Positions 1,283-34,036 of a stretch of DNA of 64,000 nt are shown in pieces; position 1 is the stretch's first letter, and each line of letters opens with the position of its first letter. Position numbers and translations under genes: made by a program. This DNA comes from Burkholderiales bacterium. GTDB lineage: Bacteria; Pseudomonadota; Gammaproteobacteria; Burkholderiales; Burkholderiaceae_C. The notes under the pieces are model-generated. The model ran no database searches. It was not told where the DNA came from and saw only the letters and a list, made by a program, of their open reading frames with translations. Location of the stretch: assembly GCA_038244915.1 (NCBI GenBank), contig JBBRSZ010000008.1, positions 41,636 through 105,635 of the forward strand, in the 5' to 3' direction.

Positions 1283-1510
1283 TGCCTGTCTCCTTGTAAT
1301 CGTTGGCGAAGTGCACCTGCCGTCGCTCTTCGCTGCCAGATGCTGGTGGAGGCCTTCTTTCGCTGTCAACGGCGCAAACACCGCGTCGACACGGCCGAAA
1401 TCGTGGCAGGCCCGGCTGCTGATGTAGGATGCCGGCATCGGGATTTCAGCCTCCCGGTGTCCCAAGACGGTGTCCCGTCCAAGCGCTGGCAACTCAAGCT
1501 GGAGTGATCC

Positions 1511-17166: not shown

Positions 17167-17201
17167 GCCCGTTCTGCTTGGCTGGTGTGTGCAGAACGGG
17201 C
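17167..17201 (-). terminator. perfect 11-bp inverted repeat overlapping the barstar stop codon (hairpin with no clear U-tract)
   Basis: GCCCGTTCTGC (17167-17177), a 13-nt loop, then GCAGAACGGGC (17191-17201). Confidence 0.35.
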
Positions 17202-17671
17202 TACAGAAAAGAATAGAAACAGCGGAACGGTATCTTCCGGTCTGCCCAGTAATCGGCGGTGTCGCGGAAGATGTCCAGCAGCTGTTCGCGCGCCTCCTTG
17301 TCGAACTTGCCGTTGGCCGGGATCTGCTCGAGCACCACGATGAACCCGGGCTGGGGGCCCGACTTGTGCAACGGGTCTGTCATGCAGTCGTACAGCGCGT
17401 CGAAGTTCTTGCCGAAGTGCGACGGCAGGGTGAACTGCTGGGCGATCAAGTCCAGCACGTCCTGCTTGCTCTGCGCCGAGGCGAGGTTGGCATACAGGAA
17501 GTGTTGTCCGAGCGCAATGGCCGCGTCCTGCAAGTCCTGCACCCGGAAGGCGCGGATCGACTGCACGATGTTGCTGCGAACGCCTTTGAGGGGCTGGTCG
17601 CCGGCTTCCTTACGAAGTGGTGTGTCCATCTCCGCGTCTCTTTCCATAGTCAAAAACAGGTCCCGACTCAT
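17201..17671 (-). CDS. barstar-family ribonuclease inhibitor with an N-terminal extension
   Basis: The C-terminal half, LPSHFGKNFDALYDCMTD...FIVVLEQ, parallels barstar LPEYYGENLDALWDCLTG. It begins 5 nt after the RNase stop. The start (17671, 17647 or 17629) is uncertain. Confidence 0.7.
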   Translation of the reverse strand: MSRDLFLTMERDAEMDTPLRKEAGDQPLKGVRSNIVQSIRAFRVQDLQDAAIALGQHFLYANLASAQSKQDVLDLIAQQFTLPSHFGKNFDALYDCMTDPLHKSGPQPGFIVVLEQIPANGKFDKEAREQLLDIFRDTADYWADRKIPFRCFYSFL

Positions 17672-17676
17672 TGGGT

Positions 17677-18084
17677 TTACTCCACGATCTTGCGAAAACT
17701 TGCGTAGTGGTCGGCGGTGTAATAACAGGCGTGTGGCGCCCGGGCTGGCCCTCCACACACGATGCGCCGGGCTCCCCGGTCGCGTGATCCTGGCGTCAGC
17801 ACGGTGTACTCGCGGTAGAAACCGCGCCTTTCGGTCGGCAGCTGACGCTCCCGGTTGCCGAACACCACGCCGTCCTTGTCGAAGGGGAAAGGCCCGCCAG
17901 CGCGGATCAATTCGTAAGTCACCTGGCCCGCCTTGGGCAACTCGGCGATCGCAATGACCGCTGAACTGTTTGGGGCTGATCCTTCCCGCGAGGGCTGCCT
18001 GGCCTGAACCAGAGCCGTGCCAGTCAACGACGCTGCCAACAAGAAGCTAGTAAGTGCAAACTTGAGAGCCGCGACGCGCGACAT
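17677..18084 (-). CDS. secreted guanyl-specific ribonuclease (RNase Sa/barnase, N1/T1 superfamily)
   Basis: Sec signal MSRVAALKFALTSFLLAASLTGTALVQA. GGPFPFDKDGVVFGNRERQLP...YREYTVLTPGSRDRGARRIVCG...YYTADHYASF aligns almost residue-for-residue with RNase Sa as I remember it. Confidence 0.85.
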   Translation of the reverse strand: MSRVAALKFALTSFLLAASLTGTALVQARQPSREGSAPNSSAVIAIAELPKAGQVTYELIRAGGPFPFDKDGVVFGNRERQLPTERRGFYREYTVLTPGSRDRGARRIVCGGPARAPHACYYTADHYASFRKIVE

Positions 18085-22147: not shown

Positions 22148-22636
22148 TCAGGCGGCCGCCGTGACTTTGTCCAGCTGGGCCCGGTAATGGGCGGCGTGCC
22201 GCTCTTCGACCTTGGCCAGGGCGGCGAACCGCTTCTGCGCCTTTTCCAGGGTGGCGCGGAACTGCGCGGCGTGGACCTTCGACTCCTCGATCTGCTCGCT
22301 CATCTCGGCCACCGCGGCGGCGTTGCCCTCGGCTTGCGCGGTCCTGCGAAAACCCGGGTACATCTCGGAGTACTCATAGGTCTCGCCGTCGATGGCGATC
22401 TGCAGCGCCCTGGCCGGGGTCATCTCGGCCTTGGGGTACAGCAGGTCGAGGTGGCCGAACGCGTGGGCCACTTCCTGATTGGCGGTTTCCTCGAACGTTC
22501 GGGCGGTCTCCTCGTCGCCGGCTTCGCGCGCCAGCTTGGCGAAGTAGCGGTACTTGATGTGTGCCATGGACTCGCCCGCGAAGGCGGCCTCCAGGTTGGC
22601 CAGGGTCTTGATCTCGGGGCGTTCGGTGGCGGTCAT
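22148..22636 (-). CDS. rubrerythrin-family ferritin-like diiron protein (no rubredoxin domain)
   Basis: ATG 22636 is preceded by GGAGAT. NLEAAFAGESMAHIKYRYFA...EEVAHAF...ETYE contains the ExxH diiron motifs. Length 162 aa. Confidence 0.8.
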   Translation of the reverse strand: MTATERPEIKTLANLEAAFAGESMAHIKYRYFAKLAREAGDEETARTFEETANQEVAHAFGHLDLLYPKAEMTPARALQIAIDGETYEYSEMYPGFRRTAQAEGNAAAVAEMSEQIEESKVHAAQFRATLEKAQKRFAALAKVEERHAAHYRAQLDKVTAAA

Positions 22637-22798
22637 CTGGATCTCCTTGTGGATAGCCGATTGAGGGAATCGATCGGCACAGGAGAGATGGTAGGGAGTT
22701 ACTATAGTCAAAGCCAATTGTCTTTGGCTAATCGATTGATAGGCCCTATTCAAGGCGGACGTATCATCCGGCCACATTCCACCCACGAGGAGCGGGCC
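22637..22798. promoter_or_regulatory. divergent promoter/operator region between the rubrerythrin operon and the SPFH operon
   Basis: The region is visibly more AT-rich than its flanks. It contains the inverted repeat AGCCAA-n6-TTGGCT (22712-22729) and two AATCGAT cores (about 22668-22674 and 22730-22736). No promoter hexamers could be assigned with confidence. Confidence 0.35.
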
Positions 22799-23839
22799 AT
22801 GGCGCTGATGGATTTCATCAAGAAGCAGTTCATCGACATCATCCAGTGGACCGAGGACGGCGACGGCACGCTGGCCTGGCGCTTCCCGATGCGGGACATG
22901 GAAATCCAGTACGGTGCCATGCTGACCGTGCGCGAATCCCAGCTGGCGGTGTTCGTCAACGAAGGCAAGGTGGCCGATGTGTTCGGCCCCGGCCTGTACA
23001 AGCTGACCACGCAGACCATCCCGGTGCTGACCTACCTGAAGAACTGGGACAAGCTGTTCGAGTCCCCGTTCAAGAGCGATGTCTATTTTTTCAGCGCCCG
23101 CCAGCAGGTCGACCAGCGCTGGGGCACGCCGCAGCCGATCACCATCCGCGACAAGGACTTCGGCGCTGTGCGGCTGCGGGCCTTCGGCAACTACAGCTAT
23201 CGGGTCGCCGATCCCAAGCTGTTCCACACCCAGATCTCCGGCACCCGCGACCTGTACACCGTCAATGACCTCGACGGCCAGCTGCGCGGGCTGATCCTGC
23301 AGCACATCTCCGACGCCATCGCCAGCAGCGGCATTGCGTTCCTGGACCTGGCGACCAACCAGAGCGAATTCGCCCGGGTCCTGACGACCGAGCTCGCGCC
23401 GTCTTTCGAGGCCATCGGCCTGAAGCTGGAAGGCATGACGGTGCAGAACCTGTCGCTGCCCGAGGAGCTGCAGAAGCTGCTGGACCAGCGCATCGGCATG
23501 GGCATGGTCGGCAACGACATGGGCAAGTTCATGCAGTACCAGACCGCGCAGGCGATTCCGGAAATGGCCAAGGGCGTCGCAGCCGGCGGCGGTGGCGGCA
23601 TCGCGGGTGACGCCATGGGCCTGGGCGCGGGCATCGCCATGGGACAGGTGCTCGCGAAGAACCTGCAGGAGGGCCTGCAGAGCGCAGCGGCTTCGCCAGC
23701 GGCGCAGGTCAATGCCACGGTGAAGCCGGACGACGTCATGGCCACGCTGGAGAAGCTCGGAGAGCTCAAGGCCAAGGGGATCCTGACGCAGGAAGAGTTC
23801 GACGCCAAGAAGGCTGAGCTGCTCAAGAAGCTGGTGTGA
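22799..23839 (+). CDS. SPFH/Band-7 domain protein (YdjI, virion-core-like type) with C-terminal SHOCT-like motif
   Basis: ATG 22799 is preceded by GAGGAG. MALMDFIKKQFIDIIQWTEDGDGTLAWRFPM...LTVRESQLAVFVNEGKV. A Gly-rich linker leads to the C-terminal LGELKAKGILTQEEFDAKKAELLKKL. Confidence 0.8.
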   Translation: MALMDFIKKQFIDIIQWTEDGDGTLAWRFPMRDMEIQYGAMLTVRESQLAVFVNEGKVADVFGPGLYKLTTQTIPVLTYLKNWDKLFESPFKSDVYFFSARQQVDQRWGTPQPITIRDKDFGAVRLRAFGNYSYRVADPKLFHTQISGTRDLYTVNDLDGQLRGLILQHISDAIASSGIAFLDLATNQSEFARVLTTELAPSFEAIGLKLEGMTVQNLSLPEELQKLLDQRIGMGMVGNDMGKFMQYQTAQAIPEMAKGVAAGGGGGIAGDAMGLGAGIAMGQVLAKNLQEGLQSAAASPAAQVNATVKPDDVMATLEKLGELKAKGILTQEEFDAKKAELLKKLV

Positions 23840-25314
23840 CGCCGCAACGCGTCTACCGCGCGCCCTGCCCCGGCTGCGGTGCGCCGGTCGAATTCCGCAG
23901 CGCCCAGTCGACTCACGCGGTCTGCAGCTACTGCCACAGCACCGTGGTGCGCGATGGCGACACGCTGTCGCGCATCGGCAAAATGGCGGAGCTGTTCGAC
24001 GACCACAGCCCGCTGCAACTCATGGCCGCCGGGCGCTGGCAGGCCAGGGGCTTCACCCTGGTCGGCCGATTGCAGTACAAAGGCCCGAGCGGGACCTGGG
24101 CCGAATGGAACCTGCTGTTCGACGACGGCGGCGCCGCACTGCTGGCGGAGGACAACGGCGCCTATGTGTTGGCCTTCCCGGCCGCGGCGCAGCGTGAGCT
24201 GCCCGAGGCGGCGCGCCTGCGCGTCGGCGCCACGACGGCGATCGGCGGCAAGACCTTCAACATCGCATCCAACGAAGACGTCACACTGATTTCCGCGCAG
24301 GGCGAGCTGCCCAAGCTGCCGCCGTTGGGCCAGACGTTCGCCATGGTGGAACTGCGCAGCGACGACGGCGAGGTGCTGAGCATCGACTACGGCTCGGAAC
24401 CGCCGGCCGTGAGCCGCGGCCGCTCCGTGCTGCTGGACGCCCTGCAGTTGACCGGGCTGAGCGACGAGAGCGCGAAACAGGAGCAGGCGCGCCAGTTCGC
24501 CTGCCCCAATTGCGGCGCGCCGGTGCAGGTGCAGCTGGCCGAAAGCAAGAGCATCACCTGCCGCTCCTGCAACAGCCTGATCGACCTGACCCACGGCATC
24601 GGCTCGGAGCTGCGGCACGCGCTGCAGGACGAGCCGATCGTGCCGCTGATCCCCCTGGGCAGCCTGGGCCAGTTGCAGGGGGCGCAATGGCAGGTGGTCG
24701 GCTACCAGCACCGGATGGGCCATGAGCCTGGCGAGGACGAGCACTTCGGCTGGGACGAGTACCTGCTGTACGAGCGCAAGCGCGGCTTCATCTTCCTGGT
24801 CGATTCCCAGGAGGGCTGGAGCATCGTCAAGCCCACCACGGGCGCGCCCAGGTATGTCGACGGCGCCAGCAGCGCCAGCTACCTTGGCACGACCTACCAG
24901 CTCAAAGACAGCTACGAGGCGCAGACCAGCTACGTGGCCGGCGAGTTCTACTGGCCGGTGGAGCGCGGCCAGGCCAGCTACAACCGCGACTTCGCCAGCG
25001 GCAGCGGCGTGCTGTCGATGGAGCAGGCGCCGCGCGAGATCACCTGGTCCAGCGGCAGCACCATCGCCAGTGACACCGTGGCCAAGGCGTTCGGCCTCGA
25101 CCAGAAGAAAGAGCTGCTGCAGCGCAGCGACGCCGGGCCGACCAGCCGCGCCAGCGGGGTCGGCTGCGGCACCATCATTGCGCTGGTCATCGTGCTGCTG
25201 ATCCTGCTGGCGCTGCTGCGCGCCTGCTCGGACGGGTCCTCTTCGGGCGGCAGCGCGTGGCGCAGCGGCGGCGGTTCATTCGGCGGCTACTCCAGCGGCG
25301 GCGGCCACAAATAG
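23836..25314 (+). CDS. DUF4178-type protein with two zinc-ribbon/DUF4178 repeats, a C-terminal TM helix and a Gly/Ser tail
   Basis: GTG start within a GTGA overlap. Two zinc ribbons: CPGCGAPVEF..CSYCHS and CPNCGAPVQV..CRSCNS. Also FGWDEYLLY...GEFYW, the TM segment IIALVIVLLILLALL, and the tail GGSFGGYSSGGGHK. Confidence 0.7.
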   Translation: MTPQRVYRAPCPGCGAPVEFRSAQSTHAVCSYCHSTVVRDGDTLSRIGKMAELFDDHSPLQLMAAGRWQARGFTLVGRLQYKGPSGTWAEWNLLFDDGGAALLAEDNGAYVLAFPAAAQRELPEAARLRVGATTAIGGKTFNIASNEDVTLISAQGELPKLPPLGQTFAMVELRSDDGEVLSIDYGSEPPAVSRGRSVLLDALQLTGLSDESAKQEQARQFACPNCGAPVQVQLAESKSITCRSCNSLIDLTHGIGSELRHALQDEPIVPLIPLGSLGQLQGAQWQVVGYQHRMGHEPGEDEHFGWDEYLLYERKRGFIFLVDSQEGWSIVKPTTGAPRYVDGASSASYLGTTYQLKDSYEAQTSYVAGEFYWPVERGQASYNRDFASGSGVLSMEQAPREITWSSGSTIASDTVAKAFGLDQKKELLQRSDAGPTSRASGVGCGTIIALVIVLLILLALLRACSDGSSSGGSAWRSGGGSFGGYSSGGGHK

Positions 25315-25344
25315 ATTTTGCGATGATTTCACAAGGAGAGCTCC

Positions 25345-25566
25345 ATGGGCATTGAATGGCTGAAACCCGGCGCCTTTTTCGGCTCCATCCTGTACGCGCT
25401 GATCGGCGTCGTCGTGTTCTGGCTGAGCTTCGTCATCATCGACAAGTTCACGCCCTACAAGCTGTGGGAGGAGATCGTCGAGAAGCAGAACCGCGCGCTG
25501 GCGCTGGTGGTTGCGGCGATGGCGCTGGGCATCTCGATCATCGTCGCCGCCGCCATCCACGGGTGA
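25345..25566 (+). CDS. DUF350 (YjfL-type) small membrane protein
   Basis: AAGGAGA RBS. The 73-aa protein has two TM helices flanking DKFTPYKLWEEIVEKQNRALAL, as in DUF350. Confidence 0.7.
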   Translation: MGIEWLKPGAFFGSILYALIGVVVFWLSFVIIDKFTPYKLWEEIVEKQNRALALVVAAMALGISIIVAAAIHG

Positions 25567-27101
25567 AGGCGGTCGCGCAAGTCCTGCCGACGCCCCGCCC
25601 GGTCGAGGTGGCGCTGCTGGCCTCGGTGTTCGTGGTCGCGGCCTGCGGGCTGGTCTACGAACTGGCCGCGGGCGCGCTCGCTTCATACGTGTTGGGCGAT
25701 TCGGTGCTGCAGTTTTCCACCGTCATCGGTACCTACCTGTTCGCGATGGGCGTCGGCTCCTGGCTGTCGCGCTATTTCGAGCGCCAGCTGCCCGCGCACT
25801 TCCTGCGCATCGAATTGATGGTGGCGCTGGTCGGCGGGCTGATGCCGGCCCTGCTGTTCCTCGCCAACGCCTATGCGCCGGGCTCGTTTCGCTTCCTGCT
25901 GTACGCGCTGGTGCTGGCGGTGGGCACGCTGGTGGGACTGGAGATCCCGCTCGTCATGCGGATCCTGCGCCGCAACGTGGCGCTGAAAGACCTGGTCTCG
26001 CAAGTCCTCACCTTCGACTACCTCGGCGCCCTCGCCGTGTCGGTGGCTTTCCCGCTGCTGCTGGTGCCGCAGCTCGGGCTGATCCGCACCGGTGTGCTGT
26101 TCGGCCTGATGAACGGCGCGGTGGCGCTGTGGGCCCTGTGGCTGTTCCGGCACGAGCTGCGCCGGATGCGGGCGCACGCCGCGGCCTGCGTGCTGACGCT
26201 GGCGGCGCTGGCGGCCGCCTTCGCCGGCGCCGGCCGCATCACCACGCTGGCGGAAGACCGCTTCTACCAGGACAGCGTCGTGTTCAGCGCAACCTCGCCC
26301 TGGCAGCGCATCGTGGTGACGCATGGCCGCGCCGGCCACCGGCTGTTCCTGAACGGCAACCTGCAGTTCTCCGAGCGCGACGAATACCGCTATCACGAGG
26401 CGCTGGTCCATCCGGCGATGGCGGGGCACGGCGCTGCGCGCAAGGTGGCCGTGCTCGGTGGCGGCGACGGGATGGCGGTGCGTGAAATCCTGCGCTACCC
26501 CGGCGTCGAGAGCGTCACGCTGGTGGAGCTCGATCCCAACATGACGCAGCTGTTCTCGCAGCACGAGGCGCTGGCGCGCCTGAACGGCGGATCGCTCTCG
26601 TCGCCGAAAGTGAAGATCGTCAATGCCGATGCCTTCAAGTGGCTGGAGGACTCGAAGGACATGTTCGACGTGATCGTGGTCGACTTTCCGGACCCGACCA
26701 ACTTCTCGATCGGCAAGCTGTACACGCAATCGTTCTATGCCCTGCTGGAGCAGCGCCTGTCGGCCAGCGGCTACGCCGTGATCCAGACCACCTCGCCGCT
26801 GGTGGCGCGCCAGAGCTTCTGGACCGTGGTGGCGACGCTGGAATCCGTCGGCCTGCGGGCCGTGCCGTACCACGCCCACGTACCGAGCTTCGGCGAATGG
26901 GGTTTCGTGATCGCCAGCCGCCGGCCGTTCCGGCTGCCGCCGGAATTGCCGCCGGGGTTGCGATTTCTGACGCCGGACAGCCTGCCTGCGCTGTTCGACT
27001 TCCCGCGCGACATGGCGCGGGTTCCGGCGCAGGTGAACCGGCTTTCCAACCAGGTGCTGGTGACCACCTACGAGCGCGAATGGGGCAGGGTGGCGCAGTG
27101 A
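25563..27101 (+). CDS. membrane-anchored polyamine aminopropyltransferase (spermidine/spermine synthase-like)
   Basis: GTG start in a GTGA overlap. The N-terminal part (about 200 aa) is polytopic. The C-terminal fold carries VAVLGGGDGMAVREILRYPGVESVTLVELDPNM and VIVVDFPDPTNFSIGKLYT. Confidence 0.8.
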   Translation: MKAVAQVLPTPRPVEVALLASVFVVAACGLVYELAAGALASYVLGDSVLQFSTVIGTYLFAMGVGSWLSRYFERQLPAHFLRIELMVALVGGLMPALLFLANAYAPGSFRFLLYALVLAVGTLVGLEIPLVMRILRRNVALKDLVSQVLTFDYLGALAVSVAFPLLLVPQLGLIRTGVLFGLMNGAVALWALWLFRHELRRMRAHAAACVLTLAALAAAFAGAGRITTLAEDRFYQDSVVFSATSPWQRIVVTHGRAGHRLFLNGNLQFSERDEYRYHEALVHPAMAGHGAARKVAVLGGGDGMAVREILRYPGVESVTLVELDPNMTQLFSQHEALARLNGGSLSSPKVKIVNADAFKWLEDSKDMFDVIVVDFPDPTNFSIGKLYTQSFYALLEQRLSASGYAVIQTTSPLVARQSFWTVVATLESVGLRAVPYHAHVPSFGEWGFVIASRRPFRLPPELPPGLRFLTPDSLPALFDFPRDMARVPAQVNRLSNQVLVTTYEREWGRVAQ

Positions 27102-28666
27102 CGGCTGTCTCACGCCGCGCGCTGCTGGCTGCAGCGGCTACGCCCCTGATCGGTTGCAGCAACTCGCCCGGAATCAGCGGCGGATTCAACGGCATCAGTC
27201 ACGAGCGCGGCCATCTGCTGCGTGCCGCGGCCGCGGCCGCGCGCCGTTCGCCTCCATCGGCCAGCCGGCGAACCCGGGTGCTGATCGCCGGCGGCGGCAT
27301 CGCCGGGCTTGCCGCGGCGAGGGCGCTGCGCTTGCGCGGCATCGACGACTTCGTGCTGCTCGAACTCGAGGACAGCGCCGGCGGCAACAGCCGGGGCGGC
27401 AAGATCGGCGGCGTCGCCTGCCCGCTGGGCGCGCACTACCTGCCGGTGCCGGGCGACGACGCGCCGCAGGTGCAGAACCTGCTGGAGGAACTGGGCTTGC
27501 GCCGCCGCGTCTCCGGCCGCTGGCAGTACGACGAGCGCCACCTGTGCCACAGCCCGCAGGAGCGGTTGTACTTCGAGGGCCAATGGCAGGACGGCCTGCT
27601 GCCGCTGCAGGGCGTGGGCGCGGACACGCTGGCGCAATACCGCCGCTTCTCGCAACGGGTCGAATCCGCGCGCCAGGCCGCGCGCTACACGGTGCCGCTG
27701 GCGGATGCCGCCGCCGCGCCACTCCAGCTCGCGCTCGATGCCTTGACGTTCAGCACGTGGCTGGAGCGCGAGCGCTTCACCGACGCCCGCCTGCACTGGT
27801 ACCTGGATTACTGCTGCCGCGACGACTACGGCGCCGGCATCGGGTCGGTCTCGGCCTGGGCCGGCATCCATTACTTTGCCAGCCGCCACGGCTTTCACGT
27901 GCCGGGCGATGGGCCCGAGCGCGACGCCGTGCTCACCTGGCCGCAGGGCAACGGCTGGCTCAGCGAGCGCATGGCGTGGCCGCTGGCCGAACGGCTGCGC
28001 ACCGGCCGTGTCGTCACCCGCATCGCGTCGTCGCGCCATGGCGTGGAGGTCGACGCCCTCGACGTGGCGAGCGGCGCCAGCGAGCGCTGGCTGGCGGACC
28101 GCTGCATCGTGGCGTTGCCGGTGTTCGTGGCGGCGCGGGTGGTCGAGAGTCCGCCGTCGTTCCTGCAGCTGGCTGCCGCCCGCATCCGCCACGCGCCATG
28201 GGTGGTTGCCAACCTGCACGTGCGTGAACCGCTGGAAGACCGGCGCGGCCCGGCGCCCGCCTGGGACAACGTCCAGTACGGGACCAGGGGCCTGGGCTAT
28301 GTCGATGCGCGGCACCAGAGCCTGGACCCGACGCCCGGTGCCACAGTGCTCAGCTGGTACCGGCCGCTGGGCGACGAAGCCGACGGCCGCCGGATGTTGC
28401 TCGAGCAGCCGTGGACGGTGTGGCGCGATGCCATGCTGGCCGAACTGTCGGTGCCGCATCCCGACATTGCGCAGAAGGCGACCCGGCTCGAGGTCACCCG
28501 CTACGGCCACGCCATGGCGATGCCGCTGCCGGGCACGCTGAAAGCCTGGTCCGGCCGCTCCACGCTGCGCACCGACCGGCTGGCCTTCGCCCACAGCGAC
28601 TGGGCCGGCTACTCCGTGTTCGAGGAGGCGATGGCCGCCGGCCACCAGGCTGCCGGCGCCGTTTGA
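27098..28666 (+). CDS. FAD-dependent oxidoreductase (amine-oxidase-like) with twin-arginine and lipobox signal
   Basis: GTG start in a GTGA overlap. The N-terminus VTAVSRRALLAAAATPLIGCS has an SRRxLL Tat motif and an L-I-G-C lipobox. It is followed by VLIAGGGIAGLAAARAL...LELEDSAGGN. Confidence 0.7.
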   Translation: MTAVSRRALLAAAATPLIGCSNSPGISGGFNGISHERGHLLRAAAAAARRSPPSASRRTRVLIAGGGIAGLAAARALRLRGIDDFVLLELEDSAGGNSRGGKIGGVACPLGAHYLPVPGDDAPQVQNLLEELGLRRRVSGRWQYDERHLCHSPQERLYFEGQWQDGLLPLQGVGADTLAQYRRFSQRVESARQAARYTVPLADAAAAPLQLALDALTFSTWLERERFTDARLHWYLDYCCRDDYGAGIGSVSAWAGIHYFASRHGFHVPGDGPERDAVLTWPQGNGWLSERMAWPLAERLRTGRVVTRIASSRHGVEVDALDVASGASERWLADRCIVALPVFVAARVVESPPSFLQLAAARIRHAPWVVANLHVREPLEDRRGPAPAWDNVQYGTRGLGYVDARHQSLDPTPGATVLSWYRPLGDEADGRRMLLEQPWTVWRDAMLAELSVPHPDIAQKATRLEVTRYGHAMAMPLPGTLKAWSGRSTLRTDRLAFAHSDWAGYSVFEEAMAAGHQAAGAV

Positions 28667-28743: not shown

Positions 28744-30717
28744 ATGAAGCTCAAGCAAGGATCTGGAATCGGGCGTTCGCGCTGGCTGGCGTTGCTGGCC
28801 GCGGCCGCGTTGTGGGGTTGCGGTGGTGGCGACGACGGCATGTCGGCGTGCCTGCAGGCCACCGGCAGCGGCGGCGTGGTGGTGGGCTCGGGCCTGCCGG
28901 GCGACCCGGCGGTGCCAGAGCCCCAGTCGGGCTACAAGACCGGCAAGAAGCCGGTCACGGCGCGCCTGTACATGGCCGTCACGGCCAACCCGCTGGCCAG
29001 CCAGGCCGGCTGCGAAGTGCTGCGCGACGGCGGCACGGCAGCTGATGCGGCGGTGGCGATCCAGGCCGTGCTCGGGCTGGTGGAGCCGCAGTCGTCAGGC
29101 CTTGGCGGTGGCGCCTTCATGCTGCACTACACGGCCAGCACCGGCGCCGTGGAAAGCTACGACGGGCGCGAAACCGCCCCGGCCGCCGCGACCGAAGACT
29201 ACCTGCGCTACGTGAGCGCGGCCGACAAGACCAATCCGCTGCCCAGCCTGGGCTCCTCGTTCCTGAGCACCAAGGCCAGCGGCCGCTCGATCGGCACGCC
29301 GGGCGCGCTGCGGATGCTGGAGCTCGCGTACCAGGACCACGGCAACCTGCCCTGGACCTACCTGTTCCGCAAAGGCATCCAGCTGGCCAGCGACGGCTTC
29401 CCGATCAGCGGCCGGATGGCGGCCGCCATCAGCGGCGCGCGCGCCGACCTGCTGCGCGACCCCGAAGCCGCGGCCTATTTCCTGAACCCGGACTACACGC
29501 CCAAAGCCCTGGGCACGACGATCCGCAATCCCGCCTATGCCGACACGCTCTCGGCCATCGGTCAGGGCGGCGCCAACGCGCTGTACACCGGGCCGATCGC
29601 GCAGTCCATCGTCAACAAGATCAAGGTGACCAGCGGCGGCGTGACGAGCACCGTCGCGATCACGCCCGGCCTGACGGAACTCAGCGACCTGGCCAACTAC
29701 CGGGCGATCCGCCGCACGCCCGTCTGCACCACCTACCGCAGCACCTGGGTCTGCGGCATGGGCCCGCCCTCGTCGGGCGGCATCGCGGTGGCGCAGACGC
29801 TGGGTATCCTGGAGAACTTCGACCTGGCCGCCAATGCGCCGACGACCATCACTGCCGAAGGCGGCAAGCCCTCGGTGATGGGCGTGCACCTGGTCAGCGA
29901 ATCCGAGCGCCTGGCCTATGCGGACCGCAACAAATACGTGGCCGACACCGACTTCGTCACGCTGCCCGGCAACGGCATCGCCTCGATGGTCGACAAGAAT
30001 TACCTCAAGGGCCGCGCCGCGCTGATCTCCACCACGCGCAGCATGGGGACAGCGTCCGCCGGCGTGTTCAGCACGGCGCAGGCCCAGGGCGTCAGCGTGC
30101 AGGAGGGCAAGGGCACCACCCACATGGCCATCGTCGATCGCTACGGCAATGCGGTGACCATGACGACCACCATCGAGAGCGGCATGGGATCGTTCCACTT
30201 CACCCGTGGCTTCCTGCTGAACAACCAGCTGACCGATTTCTCCTTCGACCCGTCGGACGCCTCTGGCCCGATCGCCAATCGGGTCGCGGCGCTGAAGCGC
30301 CCGCGCAGTTCGATGGCGCCGACGCTGGTGTTCAACAAGGCGGGCGACGGCTCGCGCGGCAGCCTGCTGATGGTCACCGGCTCGCCCGGCGGCGCGACCA
30401 TCATCCAGTTCGTGGTGAAGACGCTGGTGAGCGCGCTCGATTGGAAGATGGACGCGCAACAGGCGACGTCGACACCGAACTTCGGCGCCGCCAACAGCCC
30501 GACCACCGGTGTCGGCGGCGAGCATCCGCTGATCGACGCCAGCAATAGCGGCAACAACGACGCGCTGGTCACCGGACTGCGCGCCATGGGGCACACGGTG
30601 TCGGTCGCCGCGCAGTCCAGCGGCGTCTCCACCATCATCCGGGTGCCGTCGGCCGACGGCACGCTGCTGGTGGGCGGCGCCGACCCGCGGCGCGAGGGCA
30701 TCGCGCTGGGCGACTGA
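28744..30717 (+). CDS. ggt: gamma-glutamyltransferase, lipoprotein-type signal
   Basis: GGAGG lies 5 nt before ATG 28744. Lipobox LWGC. Motifs NPLASQAGCEVLRDGGTAADAAVA, SGLGGGAFM, the autoprocessing site GTTHMAIVD, and GSPGGATII. Confidence 0.85.
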   Translation: MKLKQGSGIGRSRWLALLAAAALWGCGGGDDGMSACLQATGSGGVVVGSGLPGDPAVPEPQSGYKTGKKPVTARLYMAVTANPLASQAGCEVLRDGGTAADAAVAIQAVLGLVEPQSSGLGGGAFMLHYTASTGAVESYDGRETAPAAATEDYLRYVSAADKTNPLPSLGSSFLSTKASGRSIGTPGALRMLELAYQDHGNLPWTYLFRKGIQLASDGFPISGRMAAAISGARADLLRDPEAAAYFLNPDYTPKALGTTIRNPAYADTLSAIGQGGANALYTGPIAQSIVNKIKVTSGGVTSTVAITPGLTELSDLANYRAIRRTPVCTTYRSTWVCGMGPPSSGGIAVAQTLGILENFDLAANAPTTITAEGGKPSVMGVHLVSESERLAYADRNKYVADTDFVTLPGNGIASMVDKNYLKGRAALISTTRSMGTASAGVFSTAQAQGVSVQEGKGTTHMAIVDRYGNAVTMTTTIESGMGSFHFTRGFLLNNQLTDFSFDPSDASGPIANRVAALKRPRSSMAPTLVFNKAGDGSRGSLLMVTGSPGGATIIQFVVKTLVSALDWKMDAQQATSTPNFGAANSPTTGVGGEHPLIDASNSGNNDALVTGLRAMGHTVSVAAQSSGVSTIIRVPSADGTLLVGGADPRREGIALGD

Positions 30718-30732: not shown

Positions 30733-32142
30733 TCAGCCGCGCATCAGCGCTTCGATCTCGTCGGCCTGCACCGGCACGCCGCGCGAGATCAGCTCGCAGC
30801 CGCCCTCGGTGACGATCGCATCGTCCTCGATGCGGATGCCGATGTTGTGGAACTTCTCGGGCACGCCGTCGCCGGGGCGCACATACAGGCCCGGCTCGAT
30901 GGTCAGCACCATCCCGGGTTTCAGGATCCGGCTGGGGCGGTTCTTGATCACTTCGCCGGACAGCGGGTCCTTGCGCTCGCTCACCTCGCCGACCTGCGAC
31001 GGCTCCACGTAGCTGCCGCAGTCGTGCACGTCCATGCCCAGCCAGTGGCCGGTACGGTGCATGTAGAACTGGAAGTAGCTGCGGTTGTCGATCACGTCCT
31101 GCGCGCTGCCGACCTTGTTCTTGTCGAGAAGGCCGACATCGAGCAGGCCCTGCGCCAGCACCTTCACCGTCGCGTCGTGCGGGTCGGTGAAGCGGGCGCC
31201 GGCCCTGGTGGCGTCGACCGCGGCTTGCTGGCTGGCCAGCACCAGGTCGTACAGCGCGCGCTGCGGGCCGCTGAACTTGCCGTCGGCCGGGAAGGTGCGG
31301 GTGATGTCGCTGGCATAGCCGTCGAGTTCGCAGCCGGCGTCGATCAGCACCAGCTCGCCCTTGCGCACCGGCGCCACGTCGGCGCGGTAATGCAGCACGC
31401 AGGCATTGGCGCCGGCGGCGACGATCGAGCCGTAGGCCGGGTACTGCGAACCGCCGAGGCGGAATTCATGCAGCAGTTCGGCATCGAGGTGGTACTCGCG
31501 CACGTCCTTGCCGCCGCGCAGCATCCGTGCCGACAGCTGCATGGCGCGGATGTGGGCGCGGGCGCTGATCTGGGCGGCGCGCCGCATGATGTCCTGCTCC
31601 TGCGGGTCCTTGACCAGCCGCATCTCGTCGAGGATGGCGCACAGGTCGCGTTGCTGCTCCGGACACAGGGCGCCGTAGCGCACGCGCGAGCGCACCTTGT
31701 TCAGCCAGCCGCCGACCCGGGCTTCCAGGCCTTCGTGGATCGCGAACGGGAACCAGACGGCATCGCGGTTTTCCAGCAGCCGGGGCATCTGCTCGTCGAG
31801 TTGGGCCACCGATATCGCGCCGTCCACGCCGAGCGCGGCGGGCGCCGCGTCCGGGCCGAGCCGGAAGCCGTCCCAGATCTCGCGTTCCAGGTCTTTCGGC
31901 GCGCACAACAGCGTGCTCTTGCCGTCGCCGGTGATCACCAGCCACGCGTTCGGCTCGCCGAAGCCGGTCAGGTAATAGAAGTAGCTGTCGTGCCGGTACA
32001 GGAAGTCGCTGTCGCGGTTGCGGGGCCGCTCCAGCGAGGTGGGGATGATGGCGATGCCGTCCTTGCCGATCTGGGCGGCGACGCGGGCGCGGCGCTGGCT
32101 GTAGACCGAGTCACCGATGAGGGGAGTAGAGGCCATGTTCAT
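30733..32142 (-). CDS. pepP: Xaa-Pro aminopeptidase (M24B)
   Basis: FLYRHDSYFYYLTGFGEPNAWLV at the N-domain, with VLIDAGCELDGYASDITRTF, HRTGHWLGMDVHD and IEPGLY...IGIRIEDD as the metal ligands. Confidence 0.85.
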   Translation of the reverse strand: MNMASTPLIGDSVYSQRRARVAAQIGKDGIAIIPTSLERPRNRDSDFLYRHDSYFYYLTGFGEPNAWLVITGDGKSTLLCAPKDLEREIWDGFRLGPDAAPAALGVDGAISVAQLDEQMPRLLENRDAVWFPFAIHEGLEARVGGWLNKVRSRVRYGALCPEQQRDLCAILDEMRLVKDPQEQDIMRRAAQISARAHIRAMQLSARMLRGGKDVREYHLDAELLHEFRLGGSQYPAYGSIVAAGANACVLHYRADVAPVRKGELVLIDAGCELDGYASDITRTFPADGKFSGPQRALYDLVLASQQAAVDATRAGARFTDPHDATVKVLAQGLLDVGLLDKNKVGSAQDVIDNRSYFQFYMHRTGHWLGMDVHDCGSYVEPSQVGEVSERKDPLSGEVIKNRPSRILKPGMVLTIEPGLYVRPGDGVPEKFHNIGIRIEDDAIVTEGGCELISRGVPVQADEIEALMRG

Positions 32143-32166: not shown

Positions 32167-32928
32167 CTACTTCGGTTGGAACAGGGCCGGCACGGCGTTC
32201 GCCACATTTGCCTTGATCAACGATTCCGCTTCCCTGAGTTTCTCCTGGGGCGTCAGCGCGCCCCAGGCGTCCATGCCGGTCTTGTTCTGCGCCGCCGCAG
32301 CCACGCTGTTGGCCGTGATGCTCTGCGTGCGTACCTCCATCGTGGCCAGGTCCACCAGCCGCAGCTGGATGTACAGGTAGGGGGCGATGATGCCTTCGCT
32401 GTGCTCGCCGGTGCGGGTGTTCTGTACGCGCAGCGACGGATCGACGTAGAAGCCCATTCCCTCCAGCTGGCCGCGGCCGGTGGTAGGGGTGCTGTAGGCG
32501 AGGCGGATGACATTGTTGTGCCGGTACTTGGTGGCAGTGACCAGGTGCGTGAAGCCCTGCTGGCGCAGCGCGTCGATCAGCGCGTTGCCGGCGACCACCT
32601 TGTCGTCCGCGACAACCGCGGCGGGGTCCATGTCGGACCCCGCCACGGCCACCTTGAGCAGAAGCACCGTGGCGTCGGGCGCGACCTTGCCCACCGCCTC
32701 CTGGGCGGCTTTCAATACCTCGATGTCCAGCAACGGGCCGGGCATCTTCAGGACGTTCGCGGCGTTGCTGAGGTTGGTCCCGGTCCCGCGATAGATCGAG
32801 ACCGTCAAGATGTCGCCCACCAGAGAGCTGATGGCGATCTTGGCCGCGACCGGCGCTGGCGCCTGGGCCTGCGCCCCACCCGCGAGCGCGCCGGCCAGAA
32901 TGAGCAGTGCGACGAACAGACGTTTCAT
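32167..32928 (-). CDS. hypothetical exported protein
   Basis: ATG 32928. Signal peptide MKRLFVALLILAGALAGGAQA. I recognise no family. It is tightly packed between murU and pepP on the same strand. Confidence 0.55.
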   Translation of the reverse strand: MKRLFVALLILAGALAGGAQAQAPAPVAAKIAISSLVGDILTVSIYRGTGTNLSNAANVLKMPGPLLDIEVLKAAQEAVGKVAPDATVLLLKVAVAGSDMDPAAVVADDKVVAGNALIDALRQQGFTHLVTATKYRHNNVIRLAYSTPTTGRGQLEGMGFYVDPSLRVQNTRTGEHSEGIIAPYLYIQLRLVDLATMEVRTQSITANSVAAAAQNKTGMDAWGALTPQEKLREAESLIKANVANAVPALFQPK

Positions 32929-32954
32929 GGAGTCTGCCTTGCGATCGAGTGTGT

Positions 32955-33653
32955 TTACTGCGCGTTCAGGTCGGCAAGACGACCCGGGGTTCCGACGTCG
33001 GTCCACGGGCCGGGGTAGACCTCGGCGGTGAGTTGCCCCTTGTCGATCGCCGCCAACAGCAGCGGCAGCATCGGGGCTTTGATACCAGCCGGGTTGCCAG
33101 CGGGGAGGCTGGCGAAGAAATCCTTGCGGTACATCCCGATGGTGGAATAAGTGGATCTGGGCGCGCCCTCACACAGCGCAACGCCATCGGCGCGCAGGCC
33201 GAAATCGCCCTTGGGGTTGTGGGGCGGGTTGGCCACCAGGTAGATGTGGGCGAGCTTGCCGCCGGCATCGAAGCGTTCCAGCGCGGCGCGCGAGAACTCG
33301 AATTGCGGCGCGTAGACATCGCCAGCCACCAGCCAGAAGCTGTCGGCCAGCAGCGGCAGCGCCCTGGCGATGCCGCCAGCCGTCTCCAGCGCGCCGCCGA
33401 AATCCTTGCCCTCGTTCGAATGGCGGATCCGCAGCCCCTGGAAGTCCGGCGGGAAGCGGTCCTCGATCTGCTGGCCCAGCCAGGCGCTGTTGATCACGAT
33501 GTCGCGCAAGCCGGCGCGGGCCAGGGCCTCGAGGTGGTACTGCAGCAGCGGCTTGCCGCGCACCTCCAGCAGCGGCTTGGGGCAGCTGTCGGTGAGCGGC
33601 CGCATCCGCTCGCCGCGGCCGGCCGCCAGGATCATGGCCCGCGCGCCGGTCAT
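32955..33653 (-). CDS. murU: N-acetylmuramate alpha-1-phosphate uridylyltransferase (MurU-like nucleotidyltransferase)
   Basis: MILAAGRGERMRPLTDSCPKPLLEVRGKPLLQYHLEALARAGLRDIVINSAWLGQQIEDRF closely parallels Pseudomonas MurU as I remember it. The ATG overlaps the upstream TGA (ATGA). An alternative start is 33635. Confidence 0.7.
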   Translation of the reverse strand: MTGARAMILAAGRGERMRPLTDSCPKPLLEVRGKPLLQYHLEALARAGLRDIVINSAWLGQQIEDRFPPDFQGLRIRHSNEGKDFGGALETAGGIARALPLLADSFWLVAGDVYAPQFEFSRAALERFDAGGKLAHIYLVANPPHNPKGDFGLRADGVALCEGAPRSTYSTIGMYRKDFFASLPAGNPAGIKAPMLPLLLAAIDKGQLTAEVYPGPWTDVGTPGRLADLNAQ

Positions 33654-34036
33654 TGGCCGTCACCCCGGTCCAGCGAGCGCTGCTCGGTCCACTCGGGCTG
33701 GAAACGATCGATCAGCGCATCCATCAGGCTGCGGGCGCGGGCTGAATGATCGCCGCTGAAGTTGCAGACATAGACGTCGGCCGTCACGGCGCGCTGCTCG
33801 GGCCAGGTGTGCAGGCAGATGTGCGACTCGGCCAGCAACACCGTCGCCGTGACGCCGCCCGCCCCGGCCTGCGTGGCGGGGAACGTGTGGAACAACTGGT
33901 CCACCGGCTGCAGCCCCGCCGCCACCACCGCCTGCACGCACCAGTCGCCCAGGCGCTGGGCGTCCGTCAGCCAGGCGGCGTCGCAGCGGCACCGGTACAG
34001 ATCGGCCGTCAGGTGGAGTCCTTGCATGGACGCCAC
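33650..34036 (-). CDS. S-adenosylmethionine decarboxylase-family pyruvoyl proenzyme (small SpeH/SpeD class 1)
   Basis: GLHLTADLYRC...TATVLLAESHICLHTWPE...ADVYVCNF contains the E-S self-cleavage site in its canonical context. The substrate (SAM versus Orn/Arg) cannot be read from sequence alone. Confidence 0.75.
   Translation of the reverse strand: MASMQGLHLTADLYRCRCDAAWLTDAQRLGDWCVQAVVAAGLQPVDQLFHTFPATQAGAGGVTATVLLAESHICLHTWPEQRAVTADVYVCNFSGDHSARARSLMDALIDRFQPEWTEQRSLDRGDGQ

Follow-up and report, generated by a model that had tools for sequence, protein, structure and literature searches.

Operons in which a spermidine-synthase-like gene fused to a seven-transmembrane (7TM) domain stands with YjfL/DUF350 and DUF4178 genes and a CesT/Tir-PspA dyad have been described by comparative genomics (Ravi et al., 2024, mSystems, PMC11237479), and the main-text passages of that study, to which our comparisons with this class are limited, include two variants without the dyad, one of which is the Mycobacterium tuberculosis Rv2597-Rv2601 type. 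A PspA-free Band-7/SHOCT variant is described there with an S-adenosylmethionine (AdoMet) decarboxylase along with a polyamine oxidase; these passages cite Li et al. (2019) for the AdoMet decarboxylase link and give no biochemistry. Here, we describe a five-gene operon from a Burkholderiales bacterium (GenBank assembly GCA_038244915.1, contig JBBRSZ010000008.1), located in a stretch of 64,000 nucleotides (nt) that was analysed as a whole and is hereafter called the window. This operon is real and widely conserved, and it is a member of the published PspA-free Band-7/SHOCT class, so that its type is known from comparative genomics: the arrangement, which a first-pass annotation made from the sequence alone presented as an uncharacterised module, has not gone unnoticed, both the class and its PspA-free variant being already in Ravi et al. 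What is added here is a link of the AdoMet decarboxylase gene speD to the operon, both in this window and outside it, a transferase-oxidase core pair and a near-universal His-Lys tail. The operon has the following parts:

22799..23839, + strand: gene 1, SPFH/Band-7 domain, Gly-rich hydrophobic segment and C-terminal SHOCT helix pair (Band_7_1, SHOCT)
23836..25314, + strand: gene 2, zinc ribbon, DUF4178, zinc ribbon, DUF4178, transmembrane helix and tail, in this order (Pfam DUF4178, CxxC pairs)
25144..25311, + strand: tail module at the C terminus of gene 2 (residues ~437-492), one transmembrane helix followed by ...RACSDGSSSGGSAWRSGGGSFGGYSSGGGHK
25345..25566, + strand: gene 3, DUF350 (YjfL-type) protein of 73 amino acids (aa) with two transmembrane helices (Pfam), preceded by AAGGAGA
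25563..27101, + strand: gene 4, seven-helix membrane domain (residues ~14-224) and aminopropyltransferase domain (~235-512) (NCBIfam PRK03612)
27098..28666 (alternative ATG 27080), + strand: gene 5, twin-arginine (Tat) lipoprotein with a flavin amine oxidase fold (Pfam Amino_oxidase)

These five open reading frames (ORFs) are uninterrupted. Start and stop codons overlap as GTGA at 23836-23839, 25563-25566 and 27098-27101, and the junction between genes 2 and 3 is a 30-nt gap (ATTTTGCGATGATTTCACAAGGAGAGCTCC) that contains AAGGAGA. The first-pass annotation had proposed a translationally coupled five-gene operon on these grounds, and all of its ORFs, overlaps and the gap were found again in the window at these positions, the gene order being kept in related genomes. 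Its domain assignments held as well, since every one of the five proteins scored above the curated cut-off of its hidden Markov model, and so did its statement that pspA is missing: a phmmer search in which E. coli YjfJ was compared with every ORF of 60 aa or more from the 64-kb window (E<=10), a single query that limits sensitivity, returned no PspA/IM30 relative, and the annotation shows no pspA among the operon or flanking genes. On the closest metagenome contig, which has a gene 5 of 97% identity, an independent gene caller found the same five genes, encoding 346, 492, 73, 512 and 526 aa. The start of gene 5 is ambiguous between the GTG at 27098, which gives a 4-nt overlap with gene 4, and the ATG at 27080, which gives a 22-nt overlap and corresponds to the start called in that relative; the twin-arginine signal is retained with either.

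With the PspA-free class of Ravi et al. (PMC11237479), as its main-text passages present it, the operon shares a Band-7 protein with a C-terminal hydrophobic segment and SHOCT, the DUF4178 and DUF350 proteins, the 7TM-fused enzyme and the oxidase, but its AdoMet decarboxylase gene lies outside the operon, 5 kb downstream in a speD/NTP_transferase/pepP unit. According to the same passages, the Shewanella oneidensis SO_3765-type operon and M. tuberculosis Rv2597-Rv2601 have the same core of DUF4178, DUF350 and membrane-fused aminopropyltransferase as the window, whereas the former carries a lipoprotein and the CesT/Tir-PspA dyad, in whose place the window has the SPFH/SHOCT protein, and the latter has DUF2617 and DUF4247 where the window has that protein; unlike the window, neither architecture as given there includes an oxidase. 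The Bacillus subtilis pspA-ydjGHI operon, as described in these passages, resembles the window in combining a Band-7 protein with a double-zinc-ribbon membrane protein and a membrane-stress function, but has PspA, a TPM-domain protein and no polyamine enzymes, its YdjG being NTF2-like and not a DUF4178 protein. In E. coli yjfIJKLMC, DUF350 (YjfL) likewise stands beside a polyamine-handling enzyme and YjfM has a Gly/Ser/Tyr-rich tail, but this operon encodes the PspA paralogue YjfJ, a CesT-like DUF2170 protein, a DUF2491 protein and the ATP-grasp peptide--spermidine ligase YjfC, and is without aminopropyltransferase, DUF4178, Band-7 and oxidase genes, all of which are present in the window. The first-pass annotation had named it as a setting in which DUF350, DUF4178 and Band-7 genes accompany a pspA paralogue; the paralogue, DUF350 and YjfC are indeed there, and neither DUF4178 nor Band-7 is.

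The conservation of the operon was surveyed with one genome per species. Relatives of the oxidase occur in at least 591 species-level genomes, clusters at 50% identity and E<=1e-30 number 591, and the best 80 of the at least 591 loci with a gene 5 relative, all 80 from Comamonadaceae, were compared in detail, the best named relatives belonging to Caenimonas, Ramlibacter and Variovorax, which places the source of the window in this family. All five genes are contiguous and in order in 64 of the 80; four carry insertions of 0.7-5.7 kb, each between genes 4 and 5, three have gene 5 without other operon genes nearby, two further loci have a gene 4 copy ~9 kb upstream of gene 5, and the remaining loci end at contig ends. 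The inserted genes were rejected as extra parts of the system, being unrelated (hydroxyproline catabolism in one case, an L,D-transpeptidase with an M15 peptidase in another). The hydroxyproline catabolism genes are those of a Rhodoferax locus (L013, 4313-10002), together with a 400-aa ORF without Pfam match directly before gene 5, and the L,D-transpeptidase (YkuD) and M15 peptidase genes those of a Polaromonas locus (L048, 7810-9957). The lipoprotein Lpp is joined to peptidoglycan through its C-terminal Lys by enzymes of the L,D-transpeptidase type, a curious circumstance given the Lys-ending tail of gene 2.

The architecture recurs outside this family in Sphingomonadales, Burkholderia, Ralstonia, Gemmatimonadota and ~60 diverse metagenome contigs. 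The order is SPFH, DUF4178, DUF4178, a 48-aa ORF, DUF350, transferase, oxidase and speD in Novosphingobium, and Band-7, speD, DUF4178, a small ORF, DUF350, transferase and oxidase in Gemmatirosa. Burkholderia stagnalis has the operon parts in two divergent halves, Ralstonia solanacearum combines DUF350, SPFH, DUF4178, a 61-aa ORF and speD in one unit with the transferase-oxidase pair 10 kb away, and Tritonibacter has only DUF4178, a small ORF, DUF350 and the transferase, without an oxidase. In a set of 80 diverse metagenome loci whose transferase shares 51-82% identity with that of Novosphingobium, the oxidase comes immediately after the transferase in 58 of 62 cases and DUF350 directly precedes it in 58 of 66; DUF4178 is found upstream in 45 of 48, Band-7 upstream in 25 of 36, and speD is present in 20 of the 28 loci with long flanks. 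The five-gene arrangement is therefore far beyond chance, and the transferase and the oxidase are the core pair of the module; the gene order, whose conservation the first-pass annotation had named as a check, is kept, and the tight link between the two enzymes that it had put forward is borne out.

Gene 4 matches Pfam Spermine_synth (1.4e-34) and reaches 690 bits against the NCBIfam model PRK03612, 'polyamine aminopropyltransferase' (cut-off 472). It also passes the NCBIfam 'fused MFS/spermidine synthase' subfamily model (50.3 bits, cut-off 40), but differs from fusions between a major facilitator superfamily (MFS) domain and spermidine synthase in that PRK03612 fits it far better and in that it has seven helices, not a full MFS domain. 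Such fusions reportedly cluster with class-1b AdoMet decarboxylase and DUF350 genes. Its best relatives in the PDB are the Thermus thermophilus triamine/agmatine aminopropyltransferase (1UIR/3ANX) and the plant thermospermine synthase ACL5 (6BQ2), which are ~30% identical and share all motifs, but are soluble, lacking both a membrane domain and operon partners of this kind. GGGDG (299-303), DE.RYHE (273-279), D324, D356, D374 and D377 are invariant among nine sequences from four lineages, and the decarboxylated-AdoMet motifs and the catalytic Asp pair align with those of 1UIR, both Asp of D-x-x-D-P being kept.

Conservation of the membrane domain of gene 4 equals or exceeds that of the catalytic domain, and three membrane-embedded acidic residues, E33, E127 and D152, are invariant from Comamonadaceae to Gemmatimonadota. 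The AlphaFold2 (AF2) model (mean pLDDT 71) has seven membrane helices, the seventh hydrophobic helix being at 202-221. Basic residues number 2, 4 and 4 in loops 2-3, 4-5 and 6-7 and are lacking in the other loops, which places the N terminus inside (N-in). If helix 7 spans the membrane, this topology would, by the positive-inside rule, put the catalytic domain outside. We regard a periplasmic catalytic domain (helix 7 spanning) and a cytoplasmic one (helix 7 not spanning) as about equally probable.

This conserved polytopic domain, fused as it is to the catalytic domain and partnered by an oxidase that is lipid-anchored in the periplasm, could be taken to mean that the acceptor is a non-protein envelope molecule (for example the head group of a phospholipid, a glucan of the periplasm or an amine of peptidoglycan), with the seven-helix domain binding a lipid-linked acceptor and the oxidase trimming the product. 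That the module is tied to scaffolds of membrane remodelling (SPFH in the window, PspA in the sister operons of the passages cited above) would fit such an explanation. However, the conserved acidic residues suit a cationic small molecule at least as well, and the neighbourhood holds no conserved lipid- or glycan-handling gene, so that we hold this explanation to be very improbable.

Gene 5 matches Pfam Amino_oxidase over its full length (2e-20), with an FAD-binding GxGxxG fold, and carries the signal SRRALL...LIGC, in which R6, R7, L17 and C20 are invariant among 58 homologues. The Tat motif is also found in the oxidase homologues of Ralstonia, Novosphingobium and Gemmatirosa, no lineage inspected being without it. 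With its AF2 model (pLDDT 81, pTM 0.84), the top Foldseek matches were a bacterial monoamine oxidase with putrescine (8P84/9H5P), the putrescine oxidase 2YG3 and MAO-A/B, and the spermidine dehydrogenase SpdH (7D9J) came at rank 48; since all of these matches are only 16-22% identical, substrate specificity cannot be transferred from them. Pseudomonas aeruginosa SpdH and the Rhodococcus putrescine oxidase (2YG3) thus share the flavin amine oxidase fold of gene 5, but at only 16-19% identity. No Lys is invariant in the 58-sequence alignment, which as regards an active-site Lys is sequence-based and not structure-based, and sequence look-ups gave no exact match on record for gene 5.

An enzyme that may supply gene 4 with its donor is encoded in the same window, 5 kb downstream of the operon on the opposite strand, where a motif scan for LLAESHICLHTWPE followed by Pfam confirmation revealed a speD gene that the first-pass annotation had missed. 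It lies with two co-oriented genes:

33650..34036, - strand: class-1b S-adenosylmethionine decarboxylase, speD-like, with motif LLAESHICLHTWPE (Pfam AdoMet_dc 1.3e-26)
32955-33653, - strand: NTP_transferase gene, MurU-like by domain, overlapping speD by 4 nt
30733-32142, - strand: pepP, co-oriented with speD and the NTP_transferase gene

This SpeD is probably the donor-supplying enzyme for gene 4. The closest relative has the same speD/NTP_transferase/pepP unit converging on the operon, and 39 of the 80 Comamonadaceae loci have a speD homologue no more than 10 kb downstream of gene 5, which it directly adjoins in 5 of them; 30 of these 39 have speD within 100 nt of an NTP_transferase gene. In two loci (L026 and L065) the whole unit is inverted, with speD directly after gene 5, and in Novosphingobium, Gemmatirosa, Burkholderia, Ralstonia and many metagenome loci speD is inside the operon.

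That speD of the window belongs to another transcription unit, with housekeeping genes, would suit a simpler explanation, in which gene 4 is a membrane-anchored spermidine/thermospermine synthase and gene 5 a catabolic oxidase, the three membrane proteins having a separate Psp-like function. The equivalog-level NCBIfam name of gene 4 and its fully intact catalytic motifs point the same way. Against this, gene 4 reaches only 150 bits with TIGR00417, the canonical SpeE model, which is below the cut-off of 249.55, its membrane domain is more conserved than that of a mere anchor and has invariant acidic residues, and the seven parts of the module stay together in three or more phyla, their stop and start codons overlapping. 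Moreover, Betaproteobacteria are said to be marked by putrescine and 2-hydroxyputrescine rather than by spermidine. Such polyamine housekeeping thus appears improbable.

The explanation that we favour, with a confidence slightly better than even, is that of a membrane aminopropyl-transfer module that is fed by SpeD, whose product is oxidised in the periplasm and which is organised by the SPFH, DUF4178 and DUF350 proteins. In such a module, the cytoplasmic class-1b AdoMet decarboxylase would, as its family membership suggests, make decarboxylated AdoMet, and gene 4 would pass its aminopropyl group on to an amine at the inner membrane; a small diamine or polyamine is our leading guess for this acceptor. 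In gene 4, the conserved six-helix bundle with its three invariant acidic residues may then handle the cationic substrate or product, either through the membrane or along it. Once in the periplasm, the product would be oxidised by the Tat-exported, lipid-anchored flavin amine oxidase, and synthesis against oxidation would set the level of the aminopropylated compound in the envelope. Gene 1 (SPFH/SHOCT), gene 2 (zinc-ribbon/DUF4178, with the His-Lys tail) and gene 3 (DUF350) could form a sub-membrane and transmembrane scaffold or regulator, a role proposed because they replace the PspA and CesT/Tir proteins of the sister operons. Ravi et al. (2024) had come independently to this grouping of genes. 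As for the acceptor, we put the chance that it is a small polyamine at a little under even; the His-Lys tail is an unlikely acceptor and another envelope molecule a very unlikely one, the remaining share falling to housekeeping spermidine synthesis or to no activity. The first-pass annotation had read the cluster as an envelope-associated module of polyamine synthesis and turnover: its interpretation is supported in part, polyamine synthesis and turnover being an inference.

Several observations weigh against the module as we propose it. A periplasmic catalytic domain, to which the positive-inside rule leads if helix 7 spans, would be awkward for an enzyme with a cytoplasmic cofactor, the substrate of the oxidase is unreadable from such distant structures, and the roles of the three scaffold proteins are suggested by genomic context only. 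A few genomes have gene 5 apart from genes 1-4, and the Tritonibacter version does without the oxidase. Against putrescine as the acceptor, related membrane-fused homologues reportedly gave no spermidine and did not complement E. coli speE, and a substrate other than putrescine has reportedly been proposed for such fusions. Finally, our literature search found no experimental work or biochemistry for any member of the operon class, searches on Rv2597, Rv2600, Rv2601 and Ralstonia speE yielded nothing on function, and DUF4178 turned up in one paper of the library searched.

The tail module of gene 2, overlooked in the first-pass annotation, is near-universal in the operon and gives rise to a specific testable hypothesis. 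Among 69 Comamonadaceae sequences, 184 positions of gene 2 are at least 97% conserved, as are the tail residues R476, G479, G480, G483, G484, S486, G488-G490, H491 and K492, and the last 17 residues are nearly invariant, whereas the linker that follows the helix is variable. In all other lineages inspected, among them Ralstonia, Novosphingobium, Burkholderia, Gemmatirosa and Tritonibacter, a small ORF of its own between DUF4178 and DUF350 encodes the module, with an N-terminal helix, then a Gly/Ser/Tyr-rich or DNPGxYRS-containing tail and Lys as its last residue; endings in other lineages are ...GGHK, ...GPTHK, ...YHK and ...HHYTGGK. A strict filter found the module in 51 of 54 metagenome loci, 39 ending in HK and 12 in GK, and on inspection two of the three that failed also end in HK; the share of background peptides ending in Lys is 2.8%. 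The module has no match among Pfam or NCBIfam models, and the main-text passages of Ravi et al. (PMC11237479) make no mention of a His-Lys tail. A periplasmic location is predicted for the tail. The residue of gene 2 that immediately follows the transmembrane helix is a Cys (LRAC, LSTC), C464 (nt 25225-25227), that is at least 97% conserved in Comamonadaceae and resembles a lipobox placed at an internal helix; the corresponding sequence in Burkholderia is LFSC, and Ralstonia and Novosphingobium are without this Cys.

A similar composition is seen in E. coli YjfM (L086, 7388-8026), a DUF1190 lipoprotein with the mature start GCSDSS and a Gly/Ser/Tyr/Arg-rich tail, ...SRGGYGRSSSARGHWGG. It resembles the post-helix tail of gene 2 (RACSDGSSSGG...GGGHK) but ends in HWGG, and no model connects the two.

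A tail of this kind could itself be the substrate: in protein aminopropylation, gene 4 would use the C-terminal His-Lys of the tail module as acceptor, the periplasmic oxidase would remove or convert the group, and no free polyamine would be involved. Lys is the last residue in at least 51 of the 54 diverse loci, far above background, H491 and K492 are held constant while the linker drifts, and the tail stands beside the transferase even in the oxidase-less Tritonibacter operon. Three topology predictions, independent of one another, point to the periplasm, namely the tail after an N-in helix, the Tat oxidase and the transferase domain after helix 7, and the sister operon of E. coli pairs the 'peptide--spermidine ligase' YjfC with YjfM and its similar Gly/Ser/Tyr tail. 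Such a reaction would also account for the absence of spermidine reported for related fusions. Nevertheless, the active site of gene 4 retains both Asp typical of diamine-binding enzymes, and a periplasmic catalytic domain would depend on decarboxylated AdoMet at the wrong face of the membrane. A C-terminal Lys could also serve Lpp-like peptidoglycan attachment or metal binding, and we know of no protein-lysine aminopropyltransferase. On balance, we consider protein aminopropylation unlikely. Its most explicit form, in which the transferase and the Tat oxidase both face the periplasm, the former adding an aminopropyl group to the His-Lys tail and the latter then removing or oxidising it, with decarboxylated AdoMet delivered via the acidic six-helix bundle, is also unlikely.

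Gene 1 (Pfam Band_7_1 1.8e-75, SHOCT 1.8e-9) has no signal peptide and is 74-89% identical in Comamonadaceae loci and 46-57% identical in Novosphingobium, Gemmatirosa and Burkholderia. Gene 2 matches DUF4178 (1.9e-30) in two stretches, with weak zinc-ribbon matches at residues 10-35 and 215-250, where two CxxC...CxxC ribbons are formed by the CxxC pairs at residues 11-33 and 223-245, and it has no sequence relative in the PDB. Gene 3 matches DUF350 in Pfam (1.8e-15) and the E. coli YjfL query in phmmer (1.3e-4), and has two hydrophobic segments.

Two elements precede gene 1:

22762..22767, + strand: -10-like element TATCAT, ~32 nt 5' of the gene 1 start
22787-22792, + strand: ribosome-binding site GAGGAG of gene 1

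TATCAT or CAATAT occurs at an equal distance from the gene 1 start in most of 66 Comamonadaceae loci, and a consensus promoter scan called no + strand promoter upstream of gene 1. This -10-like element is the sole conserved item 5' of gene 1, nothing resembling a sigma-54 element was seen, and a sigma-54/PspF-type or other stress promoter was rejected accordingly. An intrinsic terminator after gene 5 was likewise set aside (fold z = -0.16 against shuffled sequence, none found by a terminator scan), as was a riboswitch or known RNA near the operon, none being found; the only Rfam match in the 64-kb window is a chrB-b RNA motif (RF03086) at 1438-1489 (+ strand; 49 bits, gathering score 36.5). 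A defence system was also discarded, the PADLOC match being only that of gene 4 to mad2, a generic methyltransferase-fold match.

Upstream and divergent from the operon lie genes for rubrerythrin (22148-22636, - strand), rubredoxin, rubredoxin reductase and malic enzyme. A functional link of the operon to the rubrerythrin, rubredoxin and reductase genes through peroxide removal was rejected, as they are nearby in only 5 of the 80 Comamonadaceae loci. The AT-rich intergenic region of 162 nt between rubrerythrin and gene 1 contains a perfect palindrome, AGCCAA-N6-TTGGCT (22712-22729), which is probably an operator for these three genes; a similar GCCAATTG...TGGCT is present in a Caenimonas (L001) and a Ramlibacter (L041) locus, both with rubrerythrin upstream. 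Downstream, 77 nt after gene 5, a gamma-glutamyltranspeptidase gene with a lipoprotein signal (LWGC) occupies 28744-30717 (+ strand). It was considered as a sixth operon member and rejected, none of the 80 related genomes having a homologue and only the closest metagenome relative sharing it, and since it has no counterpart in related loci it looks like a recent insertion. The ~800 nt between pepP and the NTP_transferase gene are filled by a 279-aa ORF (32167-33006, - strand) without Pfam match; since these two genes abut in the closest relative, this stretch would be an insertion or reflect a start-site difference. Both maeB and pepP are stable chromosomal neighbours across related loci. Elsewhere in the window, at 17201-18084 (- strand), an ORF with a barstar domain (Pfam 1.6e-27) adjoins a 135-aa ORF that is called a barnase-type ribonuclease (PF00545) in the closest relative.

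Altogether, the module ranges from Betaproteobacteria to Gemmatimonadota, with relatives in M. tuberculosis and in the plant pathogen R. solanacearum, and it connects polyamine chemistry with the upkeep of membranes by SPFH- and PspA-type proteins. For the role, so far unexplained, that AdoMet decarboxylase plays in bacteria not producing spermidine, it is the best candidate. The conserved His-Lys tail offers a concrete and cheap test on one C-terminal peptide: if its aminopropylation proved true, this would be the first bacterial protein aminopropylation, and it would explain the purpose of AdoMet decarboxylase in spermidine-lacking bacteria.

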